Of a stretch of 64,000 nucleotides of DNA, positions 8,836 through 47,909 are shown one piece after another. Source of the stretch: an uncultured Holophagales bacterium (GTDB lineage Bacteria > Acidobacteriota > Thermoanaerobaculia > Multivoradales > UBA5704); the NCBI GenBank assembly GCA_963842525.1, contig CAWJGT010000003.1, forward strand, positions 1,248,001-1,312,000, read 5' to 3'. Below the pieces are notes generated by a model. The model was not told the DNA's origin and did not search any database. It saw nothing but the letters and a program-made list of their open reading frames with translations. The first letter of the stretch is position 1. The number at the start of each line of letters is the position of its first letter. Both the position numbers and the translations under genes were made by a program.

Positions 8836-9051
8836 ATGAGCATTCGGAAGACCAGCGTCGAAATCAATGAGCAGCTCCTGACAGCCGTCCAGCGGATCCT
8901 CTCAACGACGACCATCAAGGACACCATCGAGGAAGCCTTCCGCGAAGTGCTGCGGGCCGAGGCGCGGCGTGAGGAGATCGAGGCTCTGTCTACGATGCGC
9001 GGCATGGACCTGGCTGATCCGGACGTCATGTCCGGCGCGTGGCGCTCGTGA
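8836..9051 (+). CDS. vapB: VapB-type antitoxin
   Basis: RKTSVEINEQLL..TTIKDTIEEAFREV; overlaps the downstream PIN gene. Confidence 0.75.
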   Translation: MSIRKTSVEINEQLLTAVQRILSTTTIKDTIEEAFREVLRAEARREEIEALSTMRGMDLADPDVMSGAWRS

Positions 9052-9626: not shown

Positions 9627-10694
9627 ATGCCACGCCTCCGTTCCCTTCGCGCCGTCCTGGCTCTCGCGGCAGCGCTGTTCCTGGCGGCCGCCTGCCGCTC
9701 CGGATCTCCGCCCGCTGCGACCTCCAGCACACCGGCGAGCCCGGCCGCCCAGGCCGCCTCATCCCCCTCCGCGCCGGTCGAGATGCCGGCTCAGTACGAC
9801 GAGGACCGATGGTACGTGGCCCCGGTCACGGCCCAGGGCGAGACGCTGCTCTTCTACACCGACTCGGGCGGTGGGATGAACATGCTGCTTGCGCCGGTGG
9901 CGGACCGCCTGGGCCTGCCGCGGGAGACGGTCGAGCCTCGAGGGGCAGAAGGGGGATTTCGTCGCCTGGCCCGAGCTGAGACCGGAGGCCTCGATCCCTC
10001 TGCCTTCGCCCGACGCACCTGCGGGTGGCCGGCTGGTCGTGGTCCCGTACGAGGGGAGCTCCGGCAGATGTTCCAGGCGACCGAATCCGGGCAGCCCCGC
10101 GAAGCCGGGTTCCTGGGCCGCTGGTGGTTCGCGGACCGTGTCTGGACCTTCGACTACCCAGGGCACCGCCTCCTGCTCCGTGCCGCGGGCGACGTGCCGT
10201 CGCAGGCGCCCGAGCACCGTGTCGCGCTCGGCTTCCAGACCGGCCCGGACGGCCGGCGCACCACCCACTTCCCGCGCATCCCGGTCCGCATCGACGGCGA
10301 GACCCTCGACCTCCTCTTCGACACCGGGGCGACCACCATCCTCACCGCGGAGGCCCTCGCGACGATCGGTGACGGCCGTCCGGCTGCCCGCGGAGCGAGC
10401 TTCATCGCCGCCTCCGTCTTCGAGCGTTGGCACCAGCGGCATCCCGACTGGCGGGTGATCGAGAAGGCCGAGCAGGGATCGGGCGAGGCCCTGATCGAGG
10501 TCCCCTCCGTCGAGATCGGCGGCTACACCGTCGGCCCGGTCTGGTTCACCCGCCGGAAGGACTCCAACTTCCACCAGTGGATGTCCCAGTGGATGGACCG
10601 CCGGATCGAAGGTGCCCTGGGAGGCTCGGCGCTCCGCTATCTGCGGGTGACGGTCGACTACCCGAACGCCGTGGCCGTCTTCGAAAAGCCCTGA
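9627..10694 (+). CDS. Lipoprotein with two retropepsin-like aspartic protease motifs
   Basis: Lipobox LAAAC; FYTDSGG and LLFDTGAT; GALG near C-terminus; probable compensating frameshifts around 9940-10060. Confidence 0.7.
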   Translation: MPRLRSLRAVLALAAALFLAAACRSGSPPAATSSTPASPAAQAASSPSAPVEMPAQYDEDRWYVAPVTAQGETLLFYTDSGGGMNMLLAPVADRLGLPRETVEPRGAEGGFRRLARAETGGLDPSAFARRTCGWPAGRGPVRGELRQMFQATESGQPREAGFLGRWWFADRVWTFDYPGHRLLLRAAGDVPSQAPEHRVALGFQTGPDGRRTTHFPRIPVRIDGETLDLLFDTGATTILTAEALATIGDGRPAARGASFIAASVFERWHQRHPDWRVIEKAEQGSGEALIEVPSVEIGGYTVGPVWFTRRKDSNFHQWMSQWMDRRIEGALGGSALRYLRVTVDYPNAVAVFEKP

Positions 10695-10774
10695 GCAGCA
10701 AATCTGTCCGTGCGTCCGTCCAAAAGAGGGAGCCGTCCTCATGGCCGGCCGGAATGTCCCCGAAGGGAATAGAG

Positions 10775-13700
10775 ATGCCGACATTTGCCGATGCGGTGCA
10801 GAAAGCCGACGAGACCGGGGCACCGGCCGTCGAAGGGTTCGCCATTCAGCTCAAGGCCGGCGCGGATGCGGAGGCCTTGACGGCCTGGCTCGAGGCCCGG
10901 CTTCCGGGAACCGGGTGGACGGCCGGGGAGATGCCGGACGGATGGTGGGTGTATCGTGCCGCCGCCGCAGCGCCCCTGCCGCCGCTCGGCGCGGGAGGCC
11001 GTCCGCGAGCTCAAGAAGATCCAGGACGTTCAGAACGCCGAGCCGCTGCTCGTCACCCGCCTGCCGGTGACGAACGGCACCGAGGCTCAGAAGGCCTTCC
11101 AGCTCTGGGGCAGGGTGAACGAAGAGCGCCTGGCCCAGATCAAGGCGGCGAGCAGCGAGCAGCGCCGGCACTGGTCGCTGGAGCAGATGCGCGTCACCGA
11201 CGTGAACGGCGAGGAGGGCGCCTGGACGATTTGGAAGAAGAAGCACGGAAACAAGCCGCCGGGCGAAGGGATCCTGGTAGCCCATCCGGACACCGGGTAC
11301 ACGCGGCATGCGCGCCTCCTCCCGCACCTGCAGCCGCATCCGGACAACCCCGCGCTGTTCGGCAAGAACTTCGTCGAGCGGACGGCGTCCGACGGCTTCG
11401 ATCCCATGCGGGACCGGTCGATCGGCAGCAACCCCGGTCACGGCACGAGCACGGCCAGCGTGATTGCCGCCGATCGCGGACCGGCCGGCCAGCCCTGGGG
11501 AGTGGCGCCCGGCGCGAAGATCCTCCCGCTGCGGGTGTCGTCCTCCGTCATCCACCTGAGCTTCGTGAATGTCGGCGATGCCTTCAACGAGGCGATGCGC
11601 CGTGGCGCGCACGTCCTCTCGATGTCGCTCGGCGGGCCGCTCGGCTCCGAGCTGCTGAGCACCCTGGTCCGCCGCGCGCTCGACCAGGGCATCATCATCG
11701 TCTCCGCGGCGGGCAACAACGCCCCGACGGTGGTTTTCCCGGCCCTCCTCCCCGGTGTTATCGCCTGCGCTGCCAGTAATGCGCTGAGCGCGCCGTGGCG
11801 TTTCTCCGGCCTGGGCGCCGAGGTGGCGATCACCGCGCCGGGCGAGTTGGTCTGGCACGACTGGGCGCGGACCGGCGCAAACGGGCAGCCGGTCGACGAT
11901 CAGGAGAGTGGCAGCGGCACGTCGTACGCGACGGCCAATGTCGCCGGCCTCGCCGCGCTGTGGCTGTCCTATCACGGCCGAAAGAATCTGATCGATAAAC
12001 CTTGCGGCGGCAGGGCAGAGCTGTTGCCGTTCTTGTTCCGCTACTGCCTGCAGAAGTCGGCCGACGGGAAGCCCAAGTTCATCCGCGGCGGCAGCGGTGG
12101 CTTCGGTACAGGGATCGCCCGGGCGGACAAGCTGCTGACGCAGGCTTTCCCCAAAGTCGCGGACCTGGCGAAGATGCGCGAAAAAATTCTCGCTGGTAAG
12201 CCGGACGGCATCGTCAGCTTCCCGGTGAGCTCCTGGTGGATCATCGCGACCCTGCCGACGCTGGCCGCAGGAGAGCCGCGGCTTCCGACGGCCGCCGAGA
12301 ATACGGAGCGCCGAGAAACGCCTCCTGGCGTTCCTGGGCCAGATCGCCGGGCCGGACTGCGACGCCGTGGACCGCGCCGAGATCGGAGCCCTGGCCGCGG
12401 CGGACATGCTCCTCTCCAATGCCTTGTCGAAGGCTGCGCAGGGCGGTCGCGGCACCGTCTCCGCCTCCGCTGTGCGGCGCTATCTCCTGAGCCAGGAAAC
12501 TACCGCTCTCGGACGGCCTGCGTCAGAAGCTGATCGAGGCGCGGAAGGCCGATCAGGAGGAATGGCGGAAGGAACACCCGGAGGTGTACAACGAAAAACC
12601 CTACGATCTGCCCTCCGCGGAGGACGAAGAGAAGAAGGCGGCCTATTCGATCTCCTCGCCGCCGACGCGCCGGCTCCGGGCCTTCGCCTTTGATCCGAGC
12701 CTCGCCACCAGCAGTGCCGCTGCCGCGGTCAACGAGGTCGCCATTCCGGTCGTCTTCGAGCGCAAGCTGGAGCCGGGGCCGGTCGGCGACTACCTCGAGG
12801 TCGTGGACGTGGACCCTGCCTCGGACTGCGCCTACGCCCCGGTGGACCTCAACCATCCGTTCCTGCTGGCTCAGGACGGCCTGCCGCGCTCCGAAGGCAA
12901 CCCCCAGTTCCACCAGCAGATGGTCTACGCCGTTGCGATGAAGACGATCGGCCATTTCGAGGAAGCCCTGGGCCGCCCGATCTTCTGGTCGCCGCTGCGG
13001 CCGTGGGACTGGCGCAGCGGCGACGAGGACCGCGCCGACGAGCTGTTCAAGATGGACGAGAAAACCGGGCAGCCCGTGCCGGACGATTCCGATCAGTTCG
13101 TCCGCCGCCTGCGCCTCTATCCTCATGCCTTGCGGGAACAGAACGCCTATTACTCGCCGCAGAAGCGGGCCATCCTCTTCGGCTATTTCCCGGCGGGCGA
13201 CAGCGATCCTGGCGCGGAGTTTCCCGGCGGCGTGGTCTTCACGTGCCTGGCGCACGACATCATCGCGCACGAGACGACCCATGCCGTCCTCGACGGGATG
13301 CACGCCCACTTCATCGAGTCGACCAATCCGGACGTGTTTGCCTTCCACGAAGCATTCGCCGACATCGTGGCCCTCTTCCAGCGGTTCGCCTATCCCGAGC
13401 TGCTGCGCGATCAGATCGCCCGGGTCCGCGGACGCCTGGACTCCGGGACCCTGATGACGCAGCCTCGCCCTGCAGTTCGGTGGTGCCACCGGGCGGCACC
13501 AGGCGTTGCGCGATGCCCTGGGGCACGTCGTGGACCAGGCCCGCCGGAAAGGTGAGCTGGACTGGCGCGACCGCCGCGAGGAGCACGAGATGGACGGCGG
13601 CGGTGAGCCGCAGGCCACTCTGGCCGACGCCGCGCGCGATCTGAGCGATGAGGAGACGCGCCGTCTGTGGAAACGATACCGCGCCGATCCGTGGCTGCTG

Positions 13701-14888
13701 GCCAAGGTCGAAGAGCCGCACGACCGGGGCTCCATCCTCGTCGCCGCCGTCTTCGACGCCTACCTGAGCATCTATGAGAACCGCGTCATTGACCTGAAGC
13801 GCATCGCCACCGGAGGGACGGGCGTTTTGCCCGACGGCGATCTGCATCCCGATCTCGTCAACCGCATGGCGAACGAGGCGTCCAAGTCGGCCCATCACGT
13901 CCTCCGGATGTGCCTCCGGGCGATGGATTATGTGCCGCCCATGGACATCACCTTCGGCGAGTTCCTCCGCGCGCTGATCACGGCGGATGCCGACCTCGTG
14001 CCGGACGACGACCGCCGCTACCGCGTCGCTTTCATCGAAGCCTTCCGCAAGTGGGGGATCTATCCTCGCGACGTGCGCACCCTTTCGGAAGAGTCCTTGC
14101 GCTGGTCGCCGCCCGACCCGAGGAAAAAGACCTGCCTCCTGCCGGCCGATCTCGCGAAGGTCCCACCAGAGGTTGTGGAGGGCCTCGGCAAGGTGCGCCA
14201 GGCTCTGGCCTCGATGGCAGCCCGGCAAGGCCCGCGAAAAGGTTTTCGCGCAGCTCAAGACGGCCCAGAAGGCGCTCTGGCAATATTTCCGGAGCGATAT
14301 GCTCGATAAGCTCGACCCGGACCTCAAACGGAAGCTTCTCGGCGGGATCGACACGCGGCGAAGCTTCCAACTGACCAACCTGCGTCCGGCCCGCCGGATC
14401 GGCCCCAAGGGGGAATTCCTGACCGAAATGGTCGTCGAGATCCTCCAGAACAAAAACGCGCTACCACTCGACCCGAAAGAAAAAGCCGAGGAGAAGAAGC
14501 GGCGGGAGAAGGAAAGGCTGGCGCGCCGGGAGCGCGGCGAGGCGGAAGAGACCGGACCGTTTCCCCTTCCGCGGCGGCGTCACGCTGATCGTCAGCCTGG
14601 ACGACTACAGCGTGCGCTATGCGATCTACAAGCGGATCGACAGCGTCTCCCGTGAAGACCGGCAGCGCGCGTTCCGCGCCGCGGGAGGGCGGCGGCGAGG
14701 CCGCCGAGTATTCCTCCGACGGCCTGGCCGCCGGCTGGTTCAAACCAGGATGACGCGCAGGACGCCTGGCGCAAAGATCGCACGAGCGACTGCGAGGCCA
14801 TGCGGGCGTCCTCCTGCTTCTGCCGCCGCACAAAGAAGCTCAAGAAGGCGACAAGAAAGAACCCTTCGCCCTGTTGCACCGGAGCTGA
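10775..14888 (+). CDS. Subtilase (S8) fused to a gluzincin (M4/M36-like) metalloprotease; reconstructed across several frameshifts
   Basis: S8 triad HPDTGY / GHGTSTAS / GSGTSYATANVAG; linker continues LPLSDGLRQKL..EVYNEKP into PPTRRLRAFAFDPS; IIAHETTH plus EAFAD; ends EPFALLHRS-TGA at 14886-14888; no signal peptide. Confidence 0.7.
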
Positions 14889-14908
14889 GGCTCGAAAGGA
14901 CGCTCGAT

Positions 14909-16533
14909 ATGGCTGGCACCACGAACGGCAGGCTCCTTCCCCAAGCGAGGGAGAAATCAAGATGCGCCTCTACGGGCAGGGCCTCGGCGACTGCTTCCTG
15001 CTCGCCTTCCCGCGCAAGGGCGATACGAACAACGAAAACCCCTGCTATCTGGTGATCGACTGCGGGGTCGCGATGAGCACGCCCGAGAAGGACGTTCGCA
15101 TCAAGAAGGTCGTCGAGGACATCGACGCCGCCACCGGCGGTCATATCGACGTCCTGGCCATCACCCACCAGCATTTCGATCACATCAGCGGCTTTCAGGA
15201 CGCCTGGCAGGAATGGAAGAAGATCACGGTAGATGCCCTCTATCTGCCCTGGACGGAGAGCACGGCGCCGACGGGAGAGCACAAGACCACCAAATCCTTC
15301 CGCGAGGTCCTCGAAGAGGCATCGCGAAAAAGGCGCTGGAGAAGGCGGCGAAGGAGGACCTCGAGACGCATCCGGGTTTCAAGGCCCAGGCGGACTTCCT
15401 CGGCGTATCCCTCGGCGTCGGCGGGAGCGGCACGGTCAAGCGCCCGCCCAACATGGACGCCACGATGGATTTCATCCGCGACCTCTGCCCTACCGAAAAC
15501 ATCCGCTATTTCGAGCCCGGCGACGTCTTCCACCTGCCCAGGACGGACAGTCACGGCTATGTCCTCGGCCCTCCGCTGCCGAGCCAGACGGATGAGAAAG
15601 GGAAGGAAGTACATCGAGCTCCTGGCGGACGAAAAGGAGATGTATTCCTACGGGCCTCTCGGCCTGAAAGTGGACAAGGGCAAGCCCGGCGGCAACAACT
15701 CCTTCGCCATGAGCGACGACCGCAGCATGCCTGCGCTCGCTTCTGCGCTGCTCGCCGCCGGCACGCTCGACCGCGACGGCGACGAAGGCTTCAGCCCCTT
15801 CGCCCCGGACATCCGCCTCGACTGGGACAGCGCCATGGCGTCCCCCTTCTTCGAGGAGCACTATGGAGAATCCTCGCCGCGAGGCGAAGGCGGCTCCTGG
15901 CGGCGGGTGGACTCCGACTGGCTCGCCGGGCTGGCCAACCTGGCCCTGCGCGCGGGGGACTACACGAACAACGTGAGCCTCGTGCTGGCGTTCAACCTCC
16001 CGGGCTCCGACAAAATGATGCTGTTCCCCGGCGATGCACAGGTGGGCCACTGGCTCTCCTGGCACAAGATCGAAAAGTGGCACTACCGCGATGCCTCCAT
16101 CCCCGCGAAGCCGCCCGAGGCCAACGGCGAGCAGACCCTGATGCAGAACCTGCTGAGCCGGGTCGCCTTCTACAAGGTGGGGCACCACGGCAGCCACAAC
16201 GCCACGGTCTCGGACAAGGGACTGGAGGCGATGAATCACAAGGATCTGGTGGCGTTTGTCCCTGTCAGCGTCCCGGTGGCGCAGGACATGATGGGCTATT
16301 GCCCCATGCCGTTCTACCCGGTCCTCCGCGCCCTCCAGCGGAAAACGAACGGGCGCGTGTTCCTGCCCAACGGCAAGGCCCTCACGCCTCCGCTGCTCGA
16401 CGACCCGCAGCACGCGGCTCTGCTGGCTGCGTCCGGCATCCGCTGCGCCGCCGAAAAGCTGCCCGCCAAGAAGAAAGATGGCAAGGTCGTGGAAGGAGAG
16501 GTCCCTCTGTATCTCGAGGTGACCATCGCGTAG
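14909..16533 (+). CDS. MBL-fold (ComEC/Rec2-like) metallo-hydrolase, frameshifted
   Basis: RBS GAAAGGA, ATG 14909; GQGLGDCFLL, IDCG, THQHFDHISG, NNVSLVL, FPGDAQ, KVGHHGSHNAT. Confidence 0.8.
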
Positions 16534-26021: not shown

Positions 26022-26064
26022 GCCGGACGGGTAATGCGAAGGTTGGGCCAGGGTAAGCCCTTAC

Positions 26065-26174
26065 CCAGGGTTCACACCCTGGGCTACCGAATGTCGCCCC
26101 TCCGGGCTCTGGAAAAGCCGAGGATTTGAGAGCCCGGAGGGCGGAACTGGGTAGCCCCGGGTGTCAACCCGGGT
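26065..26174. repeat. REP doublet (CCCAGGGTTCACACCCTGGGCTAC family)
   Basis: Inverted pair of palindromes; same family at 53358-53436. Confidence 0.7.
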
Positions 26175-26191: not shown

Positions 26192-28454
26192 CTATTTCAT
26201 CCCCACGGCCTTCTTCATGGCCGCGGTGATGGACTGGCGGACCTGGTAGAACCGCTCCCAGGGGTCGGCGTCCAGGTTTTCCAGGCGCTCGGGGAGATTC
26301 TGGACGGTGTAGGTGTCGGCGCGGACGTCGGTGTCGAGCTCTTCCCAGAAGAGTGGGGTCGAGACCGGAGCGTTGGCGCGGGCGCGGGTGGAGTAGGCGC
26401 AGATCGAGGTGGCGCCGCGGCCGTTGCGCAGGTAGTCGATGTAGATCTTTCCCTTGCGGCTGGCCTTGGGGAGCTTCGCCGTATAGCGCGCCGGGTCCAG
26501 GGTGACCATGGCCTCGGACACCGCCTTGGTGAAGGCTTTGACCTCGTCCCACCCGGCGCGGCGCACGAGCGGCAGGCAGACGTGGAGCCCCTTGCCGCCG
26601 GTGGTCTTGAGGAAGCTCTGCAGCCCCAGCTCTTCGAGGAGCCGGCGCATGAGCTTGGCACCTTCGACGACCCGCTCCCAGGCGAGACCCTCGTCCGGGT
26701 CGAGGTCGAAGACCACGTAGTCGGGCTTTTCGACGTTGTCGCGGCGCGAGCCCCAGATGTGGATCTCGAGCGCGCTGTTCTGCACCAGGGAGAGGAGCCC
26801 CTCGATCGAATTGACCGCGCCGTAGGGGACCGTCTTGTCCTCCTCGTCGACCTGTACCCGCAGGACGGTCTTCGGGAACTGCTCGGTCACGTGCTTTTGA
26901 TAGAAGCACTGCTTCTGCCGGCCCTCGGGGCAGCGGACCAGGGTCAGCGGCCGGTCCTTCACATGCGGGAGCATCCACTCGGCGATGCGCTCGTAGTAGA
27001 TCATCAGGTCGCGCTTGGTGAGGCCCTGCTCCGGGTAGAGGACCCTCTCCGGACTGGTCAGCTTGACCCCCGAGAATTCGGTCGCCTTGGCCGCATCCTT
27101 GGAAACCTTTTTCACGGTCTTTGCCTCGCGTGGGGGTTCCTGGGGCTCCTCGCGGACCACGTCTGCCGCCGGCTTGTCCTCGAATTCCTGCCGCTTCGGG
27201 CATTTGATCTTGAGCCAGTCCTTGTTGCGGCCGGAGTGGTAGGGACGGTCGGACCGCTTCGCGATCACCCCTTCCAGCGCGAGGTTGCAGGCCTGGCGGT
27301 AGAAGCCCTCCCCCTGCCCCTGGACGTGATCGCTGATGCGGACCGCCGCCGAGGAGGAGGCGGCGAGGAGCCGCGACAGAGCCTCCTTGCGGTCGAGGAG
27401 CTGCGCCGGCCGGAGGTCGTATCCGTCGAGGTAGAGGAGGTCGAAGGCGAAGTAGACCAGGTCGCGGTCGCGGTTGACCGTGAGGGCGTTCTGGAGCGCC
27501 TGGAAGCTGGTCCTGCCGTCCGGCTCCAGGACCACGACCTCGCCGTCGAGCAGGGCCTCCTTGACTGGCAGCGCGGCCACGGCTTCGGCGATCGGGGAGA
27601 ACCGGTCGGTCCAGTCCTTGCCGTTGCGGGTCCAGATCTTTGTCTTGCCGTCGCGCACCGCGCAGAGCACGCGATAGCCGTCGAGCTTGAGCTCGTGGAT
27701 CCACTCGTCGCCCTGCGGCGGCTCGTCGACCAGGGTCGCGAGCTGCGGCTCGACGGCACCCGGGAGCTTCGCCTTGCGGGCGCCCGGGATCTCCTTCGGG
27801 TCGACGGCGGAGGCCGTGGTTTTCGCGGCCTTTTTCAGGGGTGGCCCCCTTCTTTTCTTTTCGATCCGACTCCCACACGCGGTCGGGGTCGGCGGCGATC
27901 TCTTCGAGGGTGCGGCCGGTGGCCACGCTCTCGGGGTACTCCTGGACGACGGCGTCGCCGCTGCCGGGGACGGCGGCTTCGTCGTTCTCCTTGATGAGGA
28001 GCCAGTTCTCCTTGTCATCTCCCCCGTTGCGGCCGTGCAGCCGCACCAGGTTCCAGCCGCCGTGGAGCTTGTCGCCTTCGAGATGGAACTTGAGGTGGCC
28101 CTTGCGGTAGCCCGCCTTCGGGTCGCCTTCGGGGGTCCAGGTGCCGCGGTCCCAGAGGAGGACCGTGCCGCCGCCGTACTGCCCCTTGGGGATGATCCCT
28201 TCGAAGTCGCCGTAGTCGAAGGGGTGGTCCTCGACGTGGACCGCCAGCCGCTTCTCGCCGGGGTCGAGGCTGGGCCCCTTGGGGACCGCCCAGCTCAGCA
28301 GCACGCCTTCCAGCTCCAGGCGGAAGTCGTAGTGCAGCCGGGTGGCGGCGTGCTTCTGGATGACGTACGAGCTCCCGCTCCGTTTTTTGACCCTGCCCGC
28401 GGGCTCGGGAGTCTTACGGAAGTCGCGCTTGCGCTTGTATTCCTGGAGGCCCAT
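26192..28454 (-). CDS. ligD: NHEJ DNA ligase D (PE, ligase, polymerase); frameshift near 27860 and ligase OB domain missing
   Basis: QKHAATRLHYDFRLE (PE), ELKLDGYR and EGVIAKR (ligase), FDLDP, KTTGGKGLH, IDYLRN (Pol); KCPKRQEF joins directly to EDKPA. Confidence 0.9.
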
Positions 28455-28463
28455 GGCACCGGA

Positions 28464-29390
28464 TCAGGCGGTCTTCCGTTTGCGCGCGGTGCTCTTCTTG
28501 GCCGCGCTCTTCTTGGCGGCGGTCTTCCGCGTGGCTTGATGCGCCGTCTTCTTGGCCGCCGGCTTTTTGCCGTGCTTCGTCCCCGAGCGGCGTCCGCCGT
28601 CTTCGACGCTCTGCTTGAGGAGCGCCATGAGGTCCACCACGTTGCTGCGGGCGGCCGGCCGCTTCTCCTCTTCGGGCGGCTCGGGCGACTCTTCGAGCTG
28701 GCCGGCCTTGACGCGCTCCTTGATCATGCCCCGGAGGTCTTTGTCGTAGGTGTCCTTGTAGCGCTCGGGGTCCCAGCCGGTGACCATCCCCTCGACGAGC
28801 CGCTCCGCCATCTGGATCTCCCTGTCGCTCACCCCCTGCATGCCCCGGGGGACACTCAGGTCCTTGGCGTCGCGCAGCTCGTGGGGATAGCGCAGGATCT
28901 CCAGCACGATCACGTCGTCCCGGGCCATCACCGCGGCAAGGCGCTCCTTGGTGCGGATCACCACCTTGGCGATCCCCACCTTGCGGGCGCGGCGCAGGGT
29001 CTCCCGCAGCAGAGCATAGCCCTTCTCGCCCCGTTTGTCAGGGGCCAGGTAGTACGGCTTCTCGTAGAAGACGGGGTCGATCTCGTCGAGCTCGACGAAG
29101 TCCTGGATGTCCACGGTCTGGGTCTTCTCGGGGCTGGCGCGCTTCAGGTCTTCGTCGGAGAGGACCACGTACTGGCCCTCCTTGAATTCGTAGCCGCGGA
29201 CGGTGTCGTCCCAGGGGACCTCGCGGTTGGTCTGCTCGTTGACCCGCTTGTAGCGGACGCGGGCCATGTTGCGCTTGTCGAGCAGGTGGAACGAGATCTC
29301 CTCCGTGCTGCCCTTCTCGGCCGCGTAGAGGCCGACCGGGATGTTGACGAGGCCGAATGTGATGCTTCCTTTCCAGATTGCGCGCGCCAT
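28464..29390 (-). CDS. ku: NHEJ Ku protein
   Basis: MARAIWKGSITFGLVNIPV, YYLAPD, VVDLMALLKQS and basic tail. Confidence 0.95.
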   Translation of the reverse strand: MARAIWKGSITFGLVNIPVGLYAAEKGSTEEISFHLLDKRNMARVRYKRVNEQTNREVPWDDTVRGYEFKEGQYVVLSDEDLKRASPEKTQTVDIQDFVELDEIDPVFYEKPYYLAPDKRGEKGYALLRETLRRARKVGIAKVVIRTKERLAAVMARDDVIVLEILRYPHELRDAKDLSVPRGMQGVSDREIQMAERLVEGMVTGWDPERYKDTYDKDLRGMIKERVKAGQLEESPEPPEEEKRPAARSNVVDLMALLKQSVEDGGRRSGTKHGKKPAAKKTAHQATRKTAAKKSAAKKSTARKRKTA

Positions 29391-29468
29391 GAGGGGACTC
29401 CTCCCGTTGCACAGGACGACGGCAACGCAAAATACATGCCTCCTCACCTCCCGATGTAGGATCAGGAC

Positions 29469-30392
29469 ATGCCGATTTCCGCCAAGCCCAGCGCAACCCC
29501 GGCCCGCCTCTGGCGGGTGGAGGGGGAGGGCGTGGAGGAACGGGACGACCAACTCGCCACGGAAGAGCCCCTGGAGATCCGCCTGCGCTGGGGCGACGAG
29601 CGGCAGACCGTGGCGGTCACCATGCGCACCCCGGGAGCGGATTTCGAGCTGGCCGCCGGCTTCCTCTTCACAGAGGGCGTGATCGAGGAGCCGGAGCGCA
29701 TCCGCCGGATCGCCCATGTCTTCGGGCCGGAGGAGCCCTTCACACCGGACGGCTCCAATGTGGTGGAGGTCGAGCTGGAGGACGGCCCCGCGCCGCAGCT
29801 CCAGACGCTCGACCGGCACTTCTTCACCACCAGCGCGTGCGGCGTCTGTGGCAAGGCGGGCCTGGAAGCGCTCCGGATACGGGTCCCGGCGACGGTGCCC
29901 GAGGGTCCGTTCGTGCCTGTGGAGGTGATCCGCGCGCTGCCGGCGCGGCTGGGGGAGGCCCAGGGCCTGTTCGCCACGACCGGCGGGCTCCATGCGGCGG
30001 GGCTGTTCGACCCCACCGGCGCGCTCCTCGCCGTGCGCGAGGACGTCGGGCGCCACAATGCCCTCGACAAGCTGATCGGCTGGGCCCTGCACGCGGGCGA
30101 GCTGCCGCTGCACGACCGCCTGGTCCTGGTCAGCGGCCGGTCGAGCTACGAGATCCTCCAGAAGTGCCTGGTGGCAGGCGTGCCGTTCCTCTGCGCCGTG
30201 TCCGCGCCGAGCAGCCTGGCGGTGGAGCTGGCCGAGCGCTACGGGCTCACCCTGATCGGCTTCCTGAGGCAGAACCGTTTCAACGTCTACAGCGGCCTGG
30301 AGCGCATTGCGGGGGTGGAGAGCCTGGTGGCCGGCGAGGGCCTCCGGCCGCCCCGCCGGCGTGGCGACCGGCTCTTCCCCACGGTCCTGTAA
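29469..30392 (+). CDS. fdhD: Formate dehydrogenase accessory sulfurtransferase
   Basis: EEPLEI, MRTPG, SACGVCG, TGGLHAA, EDVGRHNALDKLIG. Confidence 0.93.
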   Translation: MPISAKPSATPARLWRVEGEGVEERDDQLATEEPLEIRLRWGDERQTVAVTMRTPGADFELAAGFLFTEGVIEEPERIRRIAHVFGPEEPFTPDGSNVVEVELEDGPAPQLQTLDRHFFTTSACGVCGKAGLEALRIRVPATVPEGPFVPVEVIRALPARLGEAQGLFATTGGLHAAGLFDPTGALLAVREDVGRHNALDKLIGWALHAGELPLHDRLVLVSGRSSYEILQKCLVAGVPFLCAVSAPSSLAVELAERYGLTLIGFLRQNRFNVYSGLERIAGVESLVAGEGLRPPRRRGDRLFPTVL

Positions 30393-30446
30393 TCCTTACA
30401 GGCCTCTGCGGGCGCTCTCCCTCGACAAACCCCTTGCCGGCCTGTC

Positions 30447-36620: not shown

Positions 36621-36741
36621 CGACTGGCGGTGAGTGTTCCTGACCACCAATTCCCGGCTGCTGTCATGCACACACTGCGCGCATTGTGGAGTTGCCCCGG
36701 TTTCGTGGACACTTTATCCTTTGGGATAATAGGAGTGTCCG

Positions 36742-37062
36742 ATGCCCAGAACCCGTCCCCCGTACAGTCCTGAGTTCCGGCAACAGATGGTGGAGTTGGT
36801 GCGAGCAGGTCGCACCCCGGAGGAGCTGTCGCGAGAGTTTGAGCCATCGGCTCAGGCGATCCGCAACTGGGTCCAGCAGAGCGGCGGGAACGTCGAGAGT
36901 CGTCGCGAGGCCGGCGGCCTGACGAGCGCAGAGAACGAGGAGCTGCGCCGTCTGAGGCGGGAGAACCGTCAACTGCGTGAAGAGCGGGAGATTCTGGCAA
37001 AAGCCGCGGCCTGGTTCGCTCGGGAGACCGGATCGATTCCGTCGAGGTGTTCAGATTCGTGA
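36742..37062 (+). CDS. IS3 transposase OrfA
   Basis: YSPEFRQQMVEL HTH; ELRRLRRENRQLREEREILAKAAAWF. Confidence 0.92.
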   Translation: MPRTRPPYSPEFRQQMVELVRAGRTPEELSREFEPSAQAIRNWVQQSGGNVESRREAGGLTSAENEELRRLRRENRQLREEREILAKAAAWFARETGSIPSRCSDS

Positions 37063-37910
37063 GCGCCAACCAGGCGAAGTACCCGGTGCGCCGGCTGTGC
37101 CGTCTGCTGGGAGTCTCCCCCAGCGGGTACTACGCGTGGTCGCGTCGATCGATCTCGCAGCATGCACGGTCCGACGCGGAGCTTGTGGCGCGGATCAGAG
37201 CCATCCACGAGCGTTCGCGGGGGACGTACGGGTCGCCGCGGATCCACGCAGAGCTGCGCGCTTGCGGTGTGCTGGTGAGCCGCAAGCGGGTGGCTCGGCT
37301 GATGCGCGAGGCGGGGTTGCGGGGAGCCAGTCGTCGTCGCCCGATCACCACGACGGTGCGGGATGCGAAGAGCCGTCCGGCCCCGGACCTGGTGAAGAGG
37401 GACTTCGCGGCCGGCGGTCGCGATCGGCTCTGGGTGGCCGACATCACCTACATTCCGACCGGGTCGGGGTTCCTGTACCTGGCGGTGGTGGTGGATGCCT
37501 GGAGCCGTCGTGTGGTGGGCTGGTCGATGGCCACGCATCTGCGGACAGAACTGGTTTTGGAGGCGCTGAACATGGCCTTGGGGCAACGCCGGCCGCAGGG
37601 AGTGATCCATCACTCCGACCAGGGGAGCCAGTACACCTCCATCGCCTTCGGCCAGCGCTGCCGTGAGGCCGGCGTGCGGCCGTCAATGGGGTCCGTGGGT
37701 GACTGTTTCGACAACGCGCTGTGTGAGAGCTTTTTCGCCACCCTGGAGTGCGAGCTCTTGGAGCGCCGTCGGTTCGGCACGCAGGTGGAGGCCCGCCTGG
37801 CCGTCTTCGAGTTCCTCGAGGGCTGGTACAACCCGCATCGTCGTCATTCGGGCCTGGGCTACCTGAGCCCAGTGGAGTTCGAACGACGCGGCGGAGGCGG
37901 CGTAACGTGA
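37047..37910 (+). CDS. IS3 transposase OrfB (DDE)
   Basis: YGSPRI, WVADITY, HSDQGSQY, DNALCESFF, YNPHRRHS. Confidence 0.93.
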   Translation: MFRFVSANQAKYPVRRLCRLLGVSPSGYYAWSRRSISQHARSDAELVARIRAIHERSRGTYGSPRIHAELRACGVLVSRKRVARLMREAGLRGASRRRPITTTVRDAKSRPAPDLVKRDFAAGGRDRLWVADITYIPTGSGFLYLAVVVDAWSRRVVGWSMATHLRTELVLEALNMALGQRRPQGVIHHSDQGSQYTSIAFGQRCREAGVRPSMGSVGDCFDNALCESFFATLECELLERRRFGTQVEARLAVFEFLEGWYNPHRRHSGLGYLSPVEFERRGGGGVT

Positions 37911-38069
37911 CGCCAAACCGCGGCCCGCTACGCGTTTCCGTAGGACCTTGGTGCTGGGGGGCTCTGCCCCCCAGGCCCCCCGAAGAACGAGTTGAGAACC
38001 CAAGCCCTAAACCGTCCACCAAACCGGGGCAGGTCCATTGAGTACCCACGGTGAGCCCCTAGACTTAGC

Positions 38070-39548
38070 ATGAATGGTCTCATTCTCGTCACTGGCGCTA
38101 CAGGCTACGTTGGAGGCCGACTTTGGCGCCGGCTTGAAGCGGACGGCAGGCGGGTGCGCTGCATGGCCCGGCGGCGGGCGGGGCTCGTGTCGCGGGTCGG
38201 ATCGGCGACCGAGGTGATGGAAGGCGACGTTTTGAAGCCCGAAACGCTTGGGCCGGTGCTCGAGGGGGTAGAGCTGGCCTACTACCTCGTCCACTCGATG
38301 GGCGCGGGCCGCGATTTCGAGTCCCAGGACCGGGAGGCGGCGCGGAGCTTCGGAGAGGCGGCGCAGCGGGCGGGGGTGCGCCGCATCGTCTACTTGGGTG
38401 GCTTGGGGCACGGCGAGGACCTCTCGCCGCACCTGAGGAGCCGGCATGAAGTCGGCGAGCGACTGCGCTTGTCCGGGGTGCCTGTGCTGGAGCTCAGGGC
38501 TTCCATCGTGCTCGGTTCGGGGAGCCTCTCCTTCGAGATGATCCGCGCGCTGGTCGAGCGCCTGCCCATCATGATCACGCCGCGTTGGGTAGAGGTCGAG
38601 GCGCAGCCGATCGCCATCGACGATCTGCTCGGCTATCTGGTCGCCGCGCTGCATGTGCCCTTCGAGGCGAGCCGGGTGTTCGAGATCGGCGGCGCCGACC
38701 GGGTGTCCTACGGGGACCTCATGCGCGAGTACGCCCGACAGCGAGGTCTGCGGCGAGTGATGATCCGCATTCCCTTCCTGACGCCGCGGCTCTCGAGCTT
38801 GTGGCTCGGGCTCGTGACGCCGATCTATGCGCGCGTGGGCCGCAAGCTGATCGAGTCAATCAAGCACCCGACCTTCGTTCGTGACCCCTCGGCGCGCGAG
38901 GTCTTCCCGTTGCAGCCGCGAAGCATGCGGGAGGCGATTGCCGCTGCCATCCGCAACGAGGAGAGCGAGATTGCCGAGAGCCGTTGGTACGATGCCTTCT
39001 CGTCCGGGGGCGAGGGACGCAACTGGGCCGGCGTTCGCTTCGGCAATCGATTCGTCGACTCGCGCACGCGGGAGGTCGATGTCGGGCCGGAAGAGGCCTT
39101 CGCGCCGATCCGCCGCATTGGCGGCGAGACGGGGTGGTACGCCTACGACTGGCTGTGGCGACTGCGCGGCTTCCTCGATCTGCTGGTCGGAGGCGTCGGC
39201 GTGCGACGCGGCCGGCCGTTGCCCGAGGCCCTGCAGGCAGGTGACGCGCTGGACTTCTGGCGTGTCGAGGCTTTCGAGCCCGGCCGGCTGCTGCGGCTTT
39301 CGGCCGAGATGAAGCTGCCGGGCCGCGCCTGGCTCGAGTTCGAGGTCGTACCGCGCGAAGGCGGATCCACAATCCGGCAGACGGCGCTCTTCGACCCGGT
39401 CGGTCTCATTGGCTTGATTTACTGGTACGGCGTGTATCCTCTGCACCGCTTGGTGTTCGCGGGCATGCTCGATGGATTGGCCCGAGCGGCGACCGCCCGA
39501 TCACGCAGGACTGGTGAGGAGCACAGACGAGGGTCGACGCAGCGTTGA
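38070..39548 (+). CDS. NAD(P)-binding SDR-like protein with DUF2867 (YbjT-like)
   Basis: LVTGATGYVG, YYLVHSM, HLRSRHEV, DFWRVE..AEMKLPGRAWLEF. Confidence 0.88.
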   Translation: MNGLILVTGATGYVGGRLWRRLEADGRRVRCMARRRAGLVSRVGSATEVMEGDVLKPETLGPVLEGVELAYYLVHSMGAGRDFESQDREAARSFGEAAQRAGVRRIVYLGGLGHGEDLSPHLRSRHEVGERLRLSGVPVLELRASIVLGSGSLSFEMIRALVERLPIMITPRWVEVEAQPIAIDDLLGYLVAALHVPFEASRVFEIGGADRVSYGDLMREYARQRGLRRVMIRIPFLTPRLSSLWLGLVTPIYARVGRKLIESIKHPTFVRDPSAREVFPLQPRSMREAIAAAIRNEESEIAESRWYDAFSSGGEGRNWAGVRFGNRFVDSRTREVDVGPEEAFAPIRRIGGETGWYAYDWLWRLRGFLDLLVGGVGVRRGRPLPEALQAGDALDFWRVEAFEPGRLLRLSAEMKLPGRAWLEFEVVPREGGSTIRQTALFDPVGLIGLIYWYGVYPLHRLVFAGMLDGLARAATARSRRTGEEHRRGSTQR

Positions 39549-39629
39549 GTGAGCAAGGCACGTGCGAGTTGCGTCGACGACGAAGATGCCTCGAAACGTG
39601 GAAAGGACTCATTGGCTCAGGAGGCGGCG

Positions 39630-39692
39630 GCCCAACAAGACGATGCAGATGACGGCGCTTCACGCCGCAGGTTGATCGCCAATCCGTTAGGC
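39630..39692 (+). other. attC-like integron cassette recombination site
   Basis: GCCCAAC-AAGACGATGCAGATGACGGCG-CTTCA-CGCCGCAGGTTGATCGCCAATCC-GTTAGGC: RYYYAAC and GTTRRRY ends with internal dyad. Confidence 0.75.
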
Positions 39693-39836
39693 GCCGGGGC
39701 GGGAGGTTTAGCATCGAGCCGCCCGGGTGCTCCACTGGCTGTTGCTTGGGAACAGCTCCGCGGAGCTTCCGGTCACCAGCCGGCACGCCGTGTTGCCGGC
39801 GCTCCCGTCGTGTTAGTCTAGGGCCAGGAGGCCGCC

Positions 39837-40100
39837 ATGCAACACCGCTTGACCATCGACTACGGCGACGATGTCCTCTTCAGTAGCGGCCTGACGCGCG
39901 GAGCCTTCGACGAAGAGGCCCGCTTCCTCCTTGCCGCGAAGCTCTACGAAGTAGGCCGGCTGAGCTCGGGCTTCGCCGCAAAGCTCTGCGGGAAGGGCAG
40001 GGTGGACTTTCTCCTCGCCCTCCCGCGAATCGGCGTTGCCATGAGCAACCTCCAGCCCGAGGATCTCGACTCCGAGGTGGAGTTCATGCGGCGTGGCTGA
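39837..40100 (+). CDS. UPF0175-family putative antitoxin
   Basis: LLAAKLYEVGRLSSGFAAKLCGKGRVDFL; overlaps the next gene. Confidence 0.8.
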   Translation: MQHRLTIDYGDDVLFSSGLTRGAFDEEARFLLAAKLYEVGRLSSGFAAKLCGKGRVDFLLALPRIGVAMSNLQPEDLDSEVEFMRRG

Positions 40101-40569
40101 ACCGATCGTCGTAAACACCGGGCCGCTGGTGTCCTTCGCCAGAATCGGCTGCCTGGACTTGATCGGCCGCTTGCCCTACGAGTTTCTTAGCCCAGCGGAA
40201 GTCTGGCAGGAGCTCGACAAAGGGCGCGCCGCAGGCCATCCTTGGGCCGCGCCAGCTTGGCTCAAGAAGAAGCCGCTGGTCAAACCGCCCTCACCCGCCT
40301 TGCTGGCCGGCCTCGACCTGGGAGAAGCCGCGGTCAACCAACTCGCCCTCGACCTTGGCGTCCGCACCGTGGCGATCGACGAATGGAAGGGACGCCGCGG
40401 CGCCCTCGCTTCGGGCCTCAGAGTCACCGGGTCGCTGGGCCTCCTGGGCCGCGCGAAGGCCGAGGGCCTGATCTCGGAGTTGAAGCCTCTCATCGCGAAG
40501 GCGATAGACGCCGGGATCTGGTACAACCGCGAGCTCGTCAGGAGCTTCCTGGAGGCCGCCGGCGAGTGA
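40093..40569 (+). CDS. DUF3368 / PIN-like putative toxin
   Basis: VVNTGPLV, LDLGEAA, IDEWKGRR, VTGSLGLL..AKAEGLI. Confidence 0.8.
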   Translation: MAEPIVVNTGPLVSFARIGCLDLIGRLPYEFLSPAEVWQELDKGRAAGHPWAAPAWLKKKPLVKPPSPALLAGLDLGEAAVNQLALDLGVRTVAIDEWKGRRGALASGLRVTGSLGLLGRAKAEGLISELKPLIAKAIDAGIWYNRELVRSFLEAAGE

Positions 40570-40764
40570 ACAAGAAGGGCTCACCGCCTCGGCCTACGTC
40601 GAAGTAAGGGCGGCGAACCCGGCCGATCGAGCGGACATCTGACGCCGCCAGGCTTTAGTTGCCGGGCTCCAGGGCGGGCTTTGTAAGAGAGTTCCGAGTC
40701 CGAGGGGTTAGGGGAAGCGGTCCTTTTCGAACCGACCTGCACTACAATCGGTGGGAGAGAAACC

Positions 40765-40841
40765 GCCCAACCCGACTGCTTAACCGGACGGTCAACGCAC
40801 TATCGTGCGTCGCCCGCCGGTTAGCAGGAGCAGCGTTGGCG
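40765..40841 (+). other. attC-like site
   Basis: GCCCAAC..CTGCTTAACCGG..ACGCAC-TATC-GTGCGT..CCGGTTAGCAG..GTTGGCG; left L box carries one extra base, as in attC. Confidence 0.7.
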
Positions 40842-40910
40842 GTCAGGGTAGTTGATGTCTTTCTTCGGCAAGGAAGAACCCGAGCAACCCGAGCCAGTCG
40901 AGATGTCCGG

Positions 40911-41345
40911 TCAGCCACAGTAGCCAGAGCAGAACCACGCGGTACCTCCGTCACACCGACAGCAGTCGAAGCACGTGGTGTCGTAATCGACGCAGTTCTG
41001 GCAGAACGAGCAGGACTGGCACCAGTGGGTCACGCCGTCGCACGTCACGTGTCCCTGCTCACCTACCGAACAGTTCCGGTCCACTGCCACGCAGGAGCTA
41101 TTGCCAGTGCAGTACTGGAAATGTCCCCAGGGCGAGCAACTCGCCTGGGCACTGCAACTGGAGAACTCGCCCACACCACCTCCCGCCCCGGAGCGCCCGC
41201 CGCTCTGAGTCGCCGCGGGGCAGACGTTGGCGGTCGAGGCCTGAAGCGAAATCAGCGCCAAGTCGGCGGGGGTCTCGTTCGGCGTGGCGACGCCGGCAGC
41301 CGGGACAAAAGCGACGACACAGGCGGTAACCCATGGAAGCTTCAT
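40911..41345 (-). CDS. Secreted Cys-rich protein (18 Cys, Gly/Ser pro-region)
   Basis: RBS GGGAGGA; MKLPWVTACVVAFVPAAGVA..SCSAQASC..CVAVDRNC..GHVTCDG..CFDCCRCDGG..CSGYCG. Confidence 0.75.
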   Translation of the reverse strand: MKLPWVTACVVAFVPAAGVATPNETPADLALISLQASTANVCPAATQSGGRSGAGGGVGEFSSCSAQASCSPWGHFQYCTGNSSCVAVDRNCSVGEQGHVTCDGVTHWCQSCSFCQNCVDYDTTCFDCCRCDGGTAWFCSGYCG

Positions 41346-41648
41346 ATCGACTTCCTCCCTTGCGCTTAGCTTATAACAGAACGCTGCATAGGCGACAAGG
41401 GCTGCGCCCAAGTAGAGGGCCTCGTGGCTCGCCTTGCCCGCCCGGAGAGGCAATCGTGGTCGAGCAGGCAGCGCGAGGGCAAAGCTCCCGTGGTCAGGCC
41501 CGCGAATTGCTGCGCAACTCGCTACGGTTGCACTTGGATCCAGTCCCAAACGACGCAGCTTGGCCTCCGCTTCGCTGCGGCCAAACTCCCCGGTCTGCTC
41601 ATCTCCGCCGGCGTCGCCGCCGCCGGCACCTGGGGCCTCGGCGAGGCT

Positions 41649-41707
41649 GCTTATGTCGCGGTGGATACGCTTAGACGCCGTGGATAGGCTTATCCAGCGG
41701 TGGATAT
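41649..41707. repeat. Three ~20-bp direct repeats GCTTA-N6/7-GTGGATA
   Basis: GCTTA at 41649, 41669, 41688; GTGGATA at 41661, 41680, 41700. Confidence 0.6.
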
Positions 41708-42003
41708 CGGGCCCCGGACCGGATACGGACCGCCAGGGCAGATCAGCCTCGTCACGGCTGCGGCCCCTTCGGTCTGCGCGCATACGCCGCGACGGGTCAA
41801 ACCCGGCCATGAGCCCGGCGGACCGAAGCGGCGACCTGGCCGACAAGATCGACGGTGACCTCCTCGGCCTCGGCGGCCTGCTGAAAGAGGAGCAGGGCAG
41901 CTAGCGCATCAGGATGCACCCCGCCGGCCTCGAAGATCGGGAGCATCTCGGCGGCGAGCTGCCGGATCCTGGCCGTATCGCCGCGGCGGGCGTGAAGAAC
42001 CAC
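41686..42003 (-). pseudogene. Copy 2: helical/TPR-like protein C-terminal fragment plus conserved spacer
   Basis: VLHARRGDTARIRQLAAEMLPIFEAGGVHPDALAALLLFQQAAEAEEVTVDLVGQVAASVRRAHGRV; no 5' part present. Confidence 0.7.
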
Positions 42004-42028
42004 CAGATCCAGAGAGACCAGGGCGGCA

Positions 42029-42355
42029 TCGAGCTCGGCGAGCGTGGTCCGCGTGGCGGCCCTTGCCGCGCTCCTCGAAGCCCGGCTTCAAGTCGAAAAT
42101 CTCCTCGTCCAGGCCGGGGATGCCGAGCTCGCCCGCGCCCTCGGGACCGAAGCGGGCCATCACCTCGAGCACGACCTGGGCATTCTCGTCGCTGCGCGCC
42201 ACCCAGGACGGCGGCGTCGCGGCGGAAGCAGTGGTGGACCAGGCCAGCGCCAGCAGGGCGGCGGCGCCCAGCGCGCGGCGGAAGGGTACAGGGATCGATC
42301 TATTCGGAAGTCACGATGTCTCCTTCGGAATTGCAGAGGTTAGCGTTCCCGGACT
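42029..42355 (-). pseudogene. Diverged duplicate of the DUF885 5' end
   Basis: Matches about 34066-34390 (WVARSDENAQVxLEVMARFGPEGAGELGIPGLDEE); truncated at TCGAGCTCGGCG. Confidence 0.85.
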
Positions 42356-42684
42356 GAGGTTGGCCATCTAAACAAGTGTCGGCAGCGGTCAATTCATTCC
42401 AGATCCTCCGCGAGCGCCCGGCCGGGCCGGAAGTGCCACCCGGGTGATCGAGAAGAGGACCGAGGTGCCTCTCCAACCTCTTGCCAACTGACGCCATGGC
42501 TTACCGTGTGTGTTCGCGGCAGGGCGCCGGCCCGGGCGCCCCTGCCGCATGTCCTTCGTATCCCGCTTGGCGAGCCCGCGCTTCGGTGGGCTTTGGATGA
42601 GATAGCGAGGCTTCTGACAGCAGTTGTCCGAATAAAGCTGGAGAACATGCCGCTTTCCAGACAACAGAAAAGGAAAAGGACACC

Positions 42685-43164: not shown

Positions 43165-43264
43165 GACCGGTGACCAGCCCACACGTTTCGCTCCCCTTCC
43201 CCACCGGTCCCACCACCAAGTGGAAGAGGGGGAATGAGCGGTGAGTCGGCGCGTGCGGTAGTGC

Positions 43265-43292
43265 GTAGGGGCGCAGCATGCTGCGCCCCTAC
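43265..43292. repeat. GTAG-type REP, perfect 28-bp palindrome
   Basis: GTAGGGGCGCAGCATGCTGCGCCCCTAC, close to the RAYT gene. Confidence 0.8.
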
Positions 43293-43402
43293 GCCGCGCA
43301 CAGACGAATGCGGGAGAGGTGGCGCATCCATGTCCTCGTACAAAAGATCTAGCGGACCGGACAGGTGGGTGCCGACAGGTGCCACCCATTAGAAGGCTCT
43401 TG

Positions 43403-45498: not shown

Positions 45499-45565
45499 CT
45501 CCGTAGGCCATACCGTTCGATTAGACCCGACTTCCGACGGCTAACCGAACAGCATTTTTGTTTAA

Positions 45566-47897: not shown

Positions 47898-47909
47898 CCG
47901 GTACGCTTT

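Follow-up and report, generated by a model that had tools for sequence, protein, structure and literature searches.

What might be the role of a bacterial gene that joins two proteases in a single protein and is followed at once by a gene for a ComEC-like hydrolase of the metallo-beta-lactamase (MBL) fold? This arrangement occupies positions 10775-16533 of a stretch of 64,000 nt (the window; G+C about 68%) from contig CAWJGT010000003.1 of an uncultured Holophagales bacterium (assembly GCA_963842525.1), and an initial annotation, made from the letters alone, had seen in it two proteases that process or unlock a nuclease-like effector. Here, we propose that the locus is, on balance, probably a protease-gated pro-nuclease conflict system of the anti-phage or abortive-infection kind. 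The proposal draws on the identities of the domains, the conservation of their catalytic residues, the pairing of the genes in both directions of search, their genomic context and the matches of their predicted folds, all of which are observed.

Once frameshifts (considered below) are corrected, the window holds the parts that had been described: a read-through protein of about 1370 residues with both an S8 subtilase triad and the zinc site HETTH..EAFAD, and an MBL gene with HxHxDH, GDAQ and HHGS motifs that starts at an ATG at 14909, 20 bases after the stop codon of the fusion gene (14886-14888). The subtilase part belongs to peptidase family S8 by its Pfam PF00082 score (E 1.2e-29, 104 bits against a cut-off of 21.8, residues 103-340 of the open reading frame (ORF) 10956-12533) and by its Asp-His-Ser triad, with the Asp in HPDTGY (11283-11300), the His in GHGTST (11436-11453), the oxyanion Asn in AAGNNAP (11706-11726) and the Ser in GSGTSYA (11910-11930). 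The metalloprotease part carries PQFHQQM (12902-12922), NAYYSPQK (13142-13165) and the zinc site in AHETTHA (13265-13285) and FHEAFAD (13343-13363), and the protein ends in MRASSCFCRR (14800-14829) and EPFALLHRS (14859-14885). In the MBL gene the motifs are THQHFDH (15163-15183), FPGDAQ (16024-16041) and VGHHGSHNAT (16177-16206), and its product matches Pfam Lactamase_B with 23.4 bits (cut-off 22.7).

How constant is the pair? MBL homologs were looked for downstream of the metalloprotease in 80 loci that had been seeded on the motifs of this module only, and 74 of them have one immediately downstream on the same strand. In five of the six others the contig comes to an end about 260 bases or less from the module, and the sole untruncated one (L036) has, after an S8-module fusion, a 1044-aa (amino acid) patatin-domain protein (11057-14191 in L036 coordinates), which looks like an effector swap at the MBL position. 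For the converse test, tblastn with the family MBL gave 26 plasmid records, 13 of them conjugative plasmids and with rhizobial plasmids among the carriers; all ten of the loci fetched from these records have the module directly upstream of the MBL, annotated once as 'peptidase M4', once as 'S8 family serine peptidase' and otherwise as 'hypothetical protein'. The conservation of the gene pair is thus borne out from both sides. Because it recurs so widely, and because intact 1365-1390-aa fusions with PF00082 make up 33 of the 120 best-listed relatives in a search with the metalloprotease piece, the arrangement of fusion and MBL gene in the window is far beyond chance.

What is conserved is a module of about 650 aa, like the M4/M36 proteases, together with the MBL. 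The commonest genomic form of the protease is a single module of 650-790 aa that lacks the S8 domain, the latter being fused in only 18 of the 80 module-seeded loci and in one of the ten on plasmids. Of the two proteases first paired with the MBL, it is therefore the thermolysin-like module that has proved to be its constant partner, and the subtilase has not. Other third components recur as well: a patatin gene lies nearby in 23 of the 80 loci, and on plasmids the third part is a patatin, a phospholipase D (PLD)-like protein or an SMC-like AAA ATPase. Beyond the MBL and these third components, no recurring neighbour was found among the loci. A fixed core with swappable enzymatic parts, a patchy phyletic spread and unrelated flanks form a pattern typical of conflict systems.

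The spread is wide. The nearest relatives of the two genes belong to Thermoanaerobaculia and other Acidobacteriota, and the best match to the metalloprotease piece reaches 85% identity over it. At least 522 relatives are found in species-representative genomes (one genome per species), and of 1.84 billion representatives of 50% identity clusters 2558 match at E<=1e-3, 637 of them at E<=1e-30. The carriers, from at least ten phyla, include Acidobacteriota, Bacteroidota, Pseudomonadota, Planctomycetota, Chloroflexota, Armatimonadota, Verrucomicrobiota, Gemmatimonadota, Actinomycetota and Deinococcota, and the parts are currently labelled 'hypothetical protein', 'S8 family serine peptidase' or 'MBL fold metallo-hydrolase'. 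Some relatives of about 1200 aa (P0026, P0034, P0071) were considered as protease-MBL fusions and rejected, since BLAST shows no MBL region in them and a module of about 600 aa duplicated in tandem. Likewise, apparent module-MBL fusion ORFs in L009, L069 and L078 are artefacts of ORF calling in high-GC DNA, the motifs not lying in one frame.

Catalytic residues are strictly kept across the family. An alignment of 22 intact S8-module fusions (A1) shows as invariant the S8 triad and oxyanion Asn (D166, H215, S376 and N307), the HExxH...E zinc site and the C-terminal tail MRASSCxCRR...EPFALLH, and the four zinc-site residues (H, E, H and E) do not vary in alignments A1, A2 and A4, single-module forms included. 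Ahead of the subtilase, the N-terminal region of about 160 residues has no match in Pfam, NCBIfam or PADLOC; shorter S8 fusions lack it, their match to the query beginning only at residue ~160, and it is possibly a prodomain of the subtilase. The initial annotation had also noted that a signal peptide is missing, and this agrees with the intact relatives, in which a crude Kyte-Doolittle scan found neither a hydrophobic N-terminus nor a membrane-helix-like stretch.

What kind of enzyme is the module? An AlphaFold2 (AF2) model of the single-module relative L028 (mean predicted local distance difference test (pLDDT) 84, predicted template modelling score (pTM) 0.89) has as its top PDB matches the M4/M36 proteases 6yze, 4k90, 3nqx and thermolysin (Foldseek probability 1.00, TMt 0.5-0.58), so that ProA, vibriolysin, thermolysin and fungalysins are matched over ~430 columns. 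Residues ~470-647 of the same model (~180 aa of helices and a four-strand sheet) gave no PDB match in Foldseek. Sequence profiles, by comparison, barely detect the relationship: the metalloprotease piece of the window has no Pfam match and is not above the PF01447 or PF02128 cut-off, relatives reach the M4/M36 Pfam models at E 2.5e-6 to 3.4e-3 with no single stretch passing the cut-off alone, a PDB sequence-profile search returns only marginal matches (E 0.13-0.49), and ESM Atlas gives 'hypothetical protein' clusters, a minority of them labelled M4/M36. By fold and HExxH...E site the module is a member of the M4/M36 clan; by sequence profile it is not. It has the fold of thermolysin (M4) and fungalysin (M36), their HExxH + E zinc site and their NAxY...G.F strand motif, and differs from them in being cytoplasmic (by the crude scan), in an extra C-terminal domain of ~200 aa, in the tail EPFAxLH and in its pairing with an MBL gene. 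A1, A2 and A4 keep this tail invariant or almost so, and it is modelled with pLDDT <50; just before it the S8 fusions add the conserved Cys motif MRASSCxCRR. Our guess is that the tail serves as a pseudo-substrate or docking peptide.

The MBL is as ComEC-like as had been supposed. The best PDB match of an AF2 model of the L002 MBL (pLDDT 81.5) is the MBL domain of ComEC, 9ic4 (Foldseek, E 1e-7, TMt 0.70), with RNase J and CPSF73 next, and the profile matches of the family are to the MBLs of Lamassu, DRT and Avs1 systems: the L021 MBL matches PADLOC LmuA (E 8.5e-21, residues 13-394), and the other best matches are PADLOC RTasMBL, Avs1a and PDC-M48B and NCBIfam Avs1a and 6A-MBL, the last being a jumbo-phage defence system named only within a list in a 2025 preprint. 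The motifs HxHxDH, GDA and HHGS are conserved across 45 family MBLs (alignment A3) as well as in the window, which makes this a ComEC-related MBL fold with an intact set of metal-binding motifs, encoded beside a co-inherited protease gene. It differs from ComEC in lacking the membrane channel domain and in ~220-280 insertion residues beyond the 266-aa ComEC domain; it is a free-standing soluble protein of 460-550 aa in which Pfam shows Lactamase_B only and the crude scan no hydrophobic segment. The extra residues form two long insertions, modelled at low confidence, that fall between the motifs HxHxDH and GDA (residues ~125-180 and ~250-355 in L002). In the L002 model the segment of insertion 2 that holds the invariant P299/F300 has pLDDT <50. 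The region of the nearly invariant F164 in insertion 1 is a candidate recognition or cut site and P299/F300 a candidate docking or cut site. The P-F pair recurs in the module tail EPFAxLH, a sequence likeness that is suggestive only.

Do the two proteins touch? A complex prediction with residues 18-520 of the L028 module and the L028 MBL (paired-order alignments, 31 rows) scored 0.75, against 0.00 for the best of three controls, a mark that 116 of 157 solved complexes attain, as do 2 of 215 mismatched pairs, counts that are only a rough guide for alignments of our own making. At least 84% of contacts are shared between runs, with partner pLDDT >=81 and 126-135 contacts. On the MBL side the predicted interface is insertion 2 (residues 263-334), including W321/R322 and P292/F293, the equivalents of P299/F300 in L002; on the module side it consists of residues 58-83, 100-102 and 151-184, including the conserved NAYYSPQK strand.

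Activation of such MBLs by proteolysis has recent precedents, two papers of November 2025 describing MBLs encoded beside proteases as zymogens (PMC12642450, PMC12799240). Evans et al. 2025 (PMC12642450) report that the trypsin-like domains of Avs2 and Avs4 cut VcMBL and AtMBL at two linkers, which turns them into Zn-dependent double-stranded DNA nucleases, and they recognise three MBL clades according to the linked protease (trypsin-like, caspase-like or S8 subtilisin-like), the third of which (Fig. 1B) is only named and not characterised there. Tuck et al. 2025 (PMC12799240) report the same zymogen activation for HamM, Avs1a and the caspase-linked CanABC. As these systems (Avs1a/VcMBL-Avs2, AtMBL-Avs4, HamM-HamAB, EpiAvs1a and CanABC) are presented in the two papers, the family described here resembles them in having a free-standing ComEC-like MBL beside a protease, two poorly ordered insertions between the metal-binding motifs, modular accessory parts and a defence-like context. 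The order of motifs is also alike (HxHxDH / NN.S / GDA / HHGS here, H.D.DH / NGSS / GDA / SHHGS in clade 1 of Evans et al.), and the models that best match our MBLs are those of the gated-MBL families.

We draw a distinction, on the same published descriptions, between those gated MBLs and the present family. Here a thermolysin-like zinc metalloprotease, whether or not S8 accompanies it, takes the place of a trypsin- or caspase-type partner, no STAND, Hachiman, Lamassu or DRT sensor is fused to it, the MBL is longer (460-550 aa against 340-390) and lies downstream of the protease gene where theirs is 'typically upstream', and the conserved insertion residues are F and P-F instead of Ile or Gly. 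Clade 3 of Evans et al. likewise has an S8 protease gene beside a protease-associated MBL, and it may in part be the module-MBL family, because annotation labels the fusions as S8 peptidases. The supplementary clade-1 data of that paper (PMC12642450) do not contain six plasmid MBL accessions that belong to our family, and the main texts of both papers (PMC12642450, PMC12799240) are free of the words metalloprotease, metallopeptidase, zinc or thermolysin (as applicable) and of patatin. No description of a system of thermolysin-like protease and MBL was found in the literature, and the family may appear unnamed in the figures or the large supplement of these papers. The comparison with Avs1 and IetAS in the initial annotation holds as an analogy, in that a defence system contains a subtilase (IetS of IetAS, Gao_Iet) or a protease with an MBL (Avs1 of AVAST type 1), and fails as membership: the locus has no IetA-type or STAND ATPase, and PADLOC matches the window only to a general 'subtilase' model (E 2.3e-12) and, weakly, to Avs1a (E 0.0048). 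An MBL far under the Avs1a cut-off and Pfam scans of fusion and module without an NTPase domain set the locus apart from AVAST type 1, as the lack of an ATPase gene sets it apart from IetAS.

In light of these likenesses, what might the pair be doing? Homology and context suggest that the nuclease would be held latent, bound through insertion 2 to the protease module, until a trigger led the protease to cut the MBL at its insertions (with the F of insertion 1 and the P-F of insertion 2 as candidate sites), upon which a Zn-dependent DNase would be released, presumably in defence. In the lineage of the window a subtilase is fused ahead of the metalloprotease, and elsewhere its place is taken by a patatin phospholipase, by a PLD-like protein or by an SMC-like ATPase; these third components may be accessory effectors or upstream activators. 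The invariance of the S8, M4 and MBL catalytic residues in the alignments argues for such a scheme. In a bolder form, which we offer tentatively and with some doubt, the family would be an obligate and self-contained pair that brings a fourth protease class (cytoplasmic and thermolysin-like) to a gated ComEC-like pro-nuclease without an NTPase sensor, the C-terminal domain and EPFAxLH tail acting as trigger sensor and pseudo-substrate lock, the fused subtilase making a two-tier cascade of initiator and executioner, and patatin, PLD-like or SMC-like parts being swapped in elsewhere. Licensing of an MBL nuclease by proteolysis was shown only in late 2025, and in the two papers only for trypsin- and caspase-linked systems (PMC12642450, PMC12799240); if our proposal is right, the module-MBL family carries that logic over to a metalloprotease partner. 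With no recognisable sensor, a common family and interchangeable third parts, it would then be a compact system of two or three genes in which to ask how a protease senses infection without an NTPase.

Several results weigh against this proposal. Pfam scans find no recognisable sensor domain (NTPase or nucleic-acid binder) in the fusion or the module, and the module matches no PADLOC and no NCBIfam model. The MBL falls far short of the family cut-offs (17-34 bits against 420 for Avs1a, NF041809, and 20-35 against 220 for 6A-MBL). The zinc ligands of the module lie outside the confident contact list, hence the predicted complex offers no substrate pose and supports binding and not a cutting pose. 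The two nearest genes on either side of chromosomal loci are mostly housekeeping, with a defence- or mobile-type Pfam match (E2-ThiF-JAB, a type IIG restriction-modification enzyme, integrase, transposases, WYL) in only 9 of the 39 loci sampled (121 of 240 selected neighbours scanned), and the window copy itself carries 12 frameshifts. On plasmids the context differs, with annotated defence or mobile genes around nine of the ten loci: most clearly, on pRle248a of R. leguminosarum (L088) a patatin-module-MBL trio is flanked by a CBASS cyclase gene on one side and a DUF1837 + DEAD/DEAH helicase pair on the other, and the other plasmid neighbours include SAVED, ImmA/IrrE, AAA + HNH, SIR2, DUF4238, ThiF, Mov34/MPN and recombinases.

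Could another account fit these data better? One option, modelled on clade 3 of Evans et al., gives the activating cut to the subtilase and leaves the thermolysin-like module the part of a sensor or scaffold. We think this unlikely. An MBL clade does sit beside S8 proteases in that paper (PMC12642450), the S8 triad is invariant in all 22 fusions of A1, and the S8-M4 fusion of pCMU01 (M. extorquens, L085) is annotated as an 'S8 family serine peptidase', so that loci like it would be classed as S8-linked; but 62 of the 80 module-seeded loci and nine of the ten plasmid loci keep the MBL without any S8 domain, the zinc-site residues stay invariant in single-module forms, and in the predicted complex of module residues 18-520 with the MBL the contact is on the M4 domain. 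A little less probable again is a stable complex of module and MBL that involves no cleavage, whether the module is an inhibitor or antitoxin of an addiction-type system or the two act jointly on a foreign substrate. The large and reproducible predicted interface, the position of the zinc ligands away from it and the presence of the pair on conjugative plasmids all suit such a complex, whereas the full invariant catalytic set of the protease points to enzymatic action, and the homologous MBL families that have been studied are, as reported, activated by insertion cleavage (PMC12642450, PMC12799240).

A role outside conflict, in secreted nutritional proteolysis, in the maturation of peptide natural products or in ComEC-type DNA uptake, seems very improbable to us. 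The S8 and M4 families are mostly secreted degradative enzymes, NCBIfam gives weak matches to the PatA/PatG cyanobactin protease and to mycosin, and the chromosomal neighbours are mostly housekeeping genes; yet the proteins show no signal peptide or membrane segment in the crude scan, the free-standing MBL comes with no detectable ComEC membrane domains, no precursor-peptide or biosynthetic genes recur among the neighbours, the distribution is patchy over many phyla and unrelated contexts, and on the plasmid L088 the module lies in a defence island. The remaining alternative concerns the window only, namely that both genes are here genuine pseudogenes, a decaying and non-functional copy, and it turns on the nature of the frameshifts.

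No single ORF spans 10775-16533 of the forward strand, and the coding frame steps through all three frames across it, as seen in a plot of third-position G+C (GC3) by frame and in the three-frame translation. For the fusion gene the same frame changes are seen by the GC3 plot, by tblastn and by a frameshift-aware alignment in which the intact homolog P0001 (1365 aa) was set against window positions 10700-14950, whose path (10775-14885) has 1352 matched codons, 1076 of them identical, and no in-frame stops; the window MBL is identical to the L001 MBL at 396 of 536 matched codons. The shifts number 12 within 4.6 kb (nine +1 and three +2/-1), with eight +1 shifts in the fusion gene at about 10991, 12312, 12496, 13463, 14214, 14557, 14684 and 14751, a +2 shift at about 14843, and three shifts in the MBL gene at about 14950, 15323 and 15606. 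Neither a common motif nor a long homopolymer was seen at these sites. More than 25 kb of flanking genes are intact, and those on both sides give full-length single-stretch Pfam matches, among them Zn_peptidase (1-290/290), SSF (1-406/406), FMN_dh (1-349/350), DUF885 (1-532/532), FdhD, MarC, LigD and Ku. The breaks are present in the deposited sequence, as the broken ORF 12584-13555 is 100% identical to P0121 of the public protein set.

That so many shifts fall in one short stretch amid intact neighbours, and that a broken ORF stands as such in public protein data, would suit decay. Genuine pseudogenes nevertheless seem to us quite unlikely. A gene drifting neutrally through 12 indels would, at an assumed indel-to-substitution ratio of about 1:10, be expected to gain stops and to lose many conserved residues, but the read-through, with X at the breaks, retains 439 of the 442 columns that are invariant in the 22 intact fusions (one of the three lost columns falls at a break), intact members lose 0-21 such columns when each is left out in turn, and both alignment paths are free of in-frame stops and of large deletions. 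Together with the intact flanks, this makes sequence error likelier than decay, and we favour a local consensus error, for example from a patch of error-prone or strain-mixed reads. As both genes are broken as they stand, the window copy gives no ground for any statement on function in its own organism. The coordinates of the locus are collected in Table 1.

Table 1. Parts of the protease-MBL locus and the stretch with its frame changes, in window coordinates
Feature	Positions	Strand	Remarks
S8 subtilase + M4/M36-like zinc metalloprotease fusion gene	10775..14888	+	~1370 codons, 9 frameshifts, P0001 alignment
N-terminal region ahead of subtilase, ~160 residues	10775..11261	+	conserved in 22/22 A1 sequences
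Peptidase S8 catalytic domain	11262..11975	+	Pfam PF00082
Thermolysin/fungalysin-like (M4/M36 fold) metalloprotease domain	12650..13980, limits approximate	+	L028 model, zinc-site conservation
Module C-terminal helical + beta-sheet region	13981..14888	+	no structural match in L028 model
MBL-fold ComEC-like predicted nuclease gene	14909..16533	+	~540 codons, 3 frameshifts, alignment to L001/L004 MBLs
Conserved ADF-LG motif, MBL insertion 1	15390..15410	+	F164 (L002 numbering) nearly invariant in 45 MBLs
Pro-Phe motif SPFAPD, MBL insertion 2	15793..15810	+	P299/F300 (L002 numbering) invariant in 45/45 A3 sequences
Stretch with all 12 frameshifts	10991..15606	+	frameshift-aware alignments

The surroundings of the pair hold some observations of their own. 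A ubiquitin-like conjugation set, either an E2-ThiF-JAB triple-domain protein with a partner of ~380 aa or genes annotated as ThiF and Mov34/MPN, adjoins the module-MBL pair in distant phyla (L023, L026, L028) and on plasmids (L083, L084, L086, L090), which may reflect either functional coupling or mere co-location in islands. In the window, a retropepsin-like aspartyl protease with a lipoprotein-type N-terminus (9627-10694) lies directly upstream of the fusion gene, making a third protease gene in the row; it is not conserved beside the pair in other loci. About 1.7 kb upstream of the fusion is a VapB-antitoxin-like ORF (8836-9048, Pfam 23.4 bits), followed by overlapping ORFs to 9556. This ORF is not conserved beside the pair elsewhere, apart from a similar small ORF pair ahead of the L004 fusion gene, which is also the sole synteny found between the flanks of the window and those of L001-L004.

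Elsewhere in the window, no tRNA genes were found in the 64 kb. The stretch 36733-47900 is rich in mobile elements and dips in GC to 0.60, with an IS3-type transposase (HTH_Tnp_1 + rve, 36733-37910), a DUF3368 protein (40045-40566), an IS200-like remnant (43406-43960) and two ORFs without a Pfam match (45986-47062 and 46662-47894) that overlap in different frames, perhaps a further broken gene. The Acido-Lenti-1 RNA motif (Rfam RF01687) occurs three times above its gathering threshold, at 26064-26108 (+), 45584-45629 (-) and 45738-45783 (+), the latter two forming a divergent pair 109 bases apart within the low-GC stretch. At 26195-30395 lies a pair of genes for non-homologous end joining, LigD (ligase + primase-polymerase) and Ku, the FdhD gene (29460-30389, +) overlapping the long ORF in the Ku frame.

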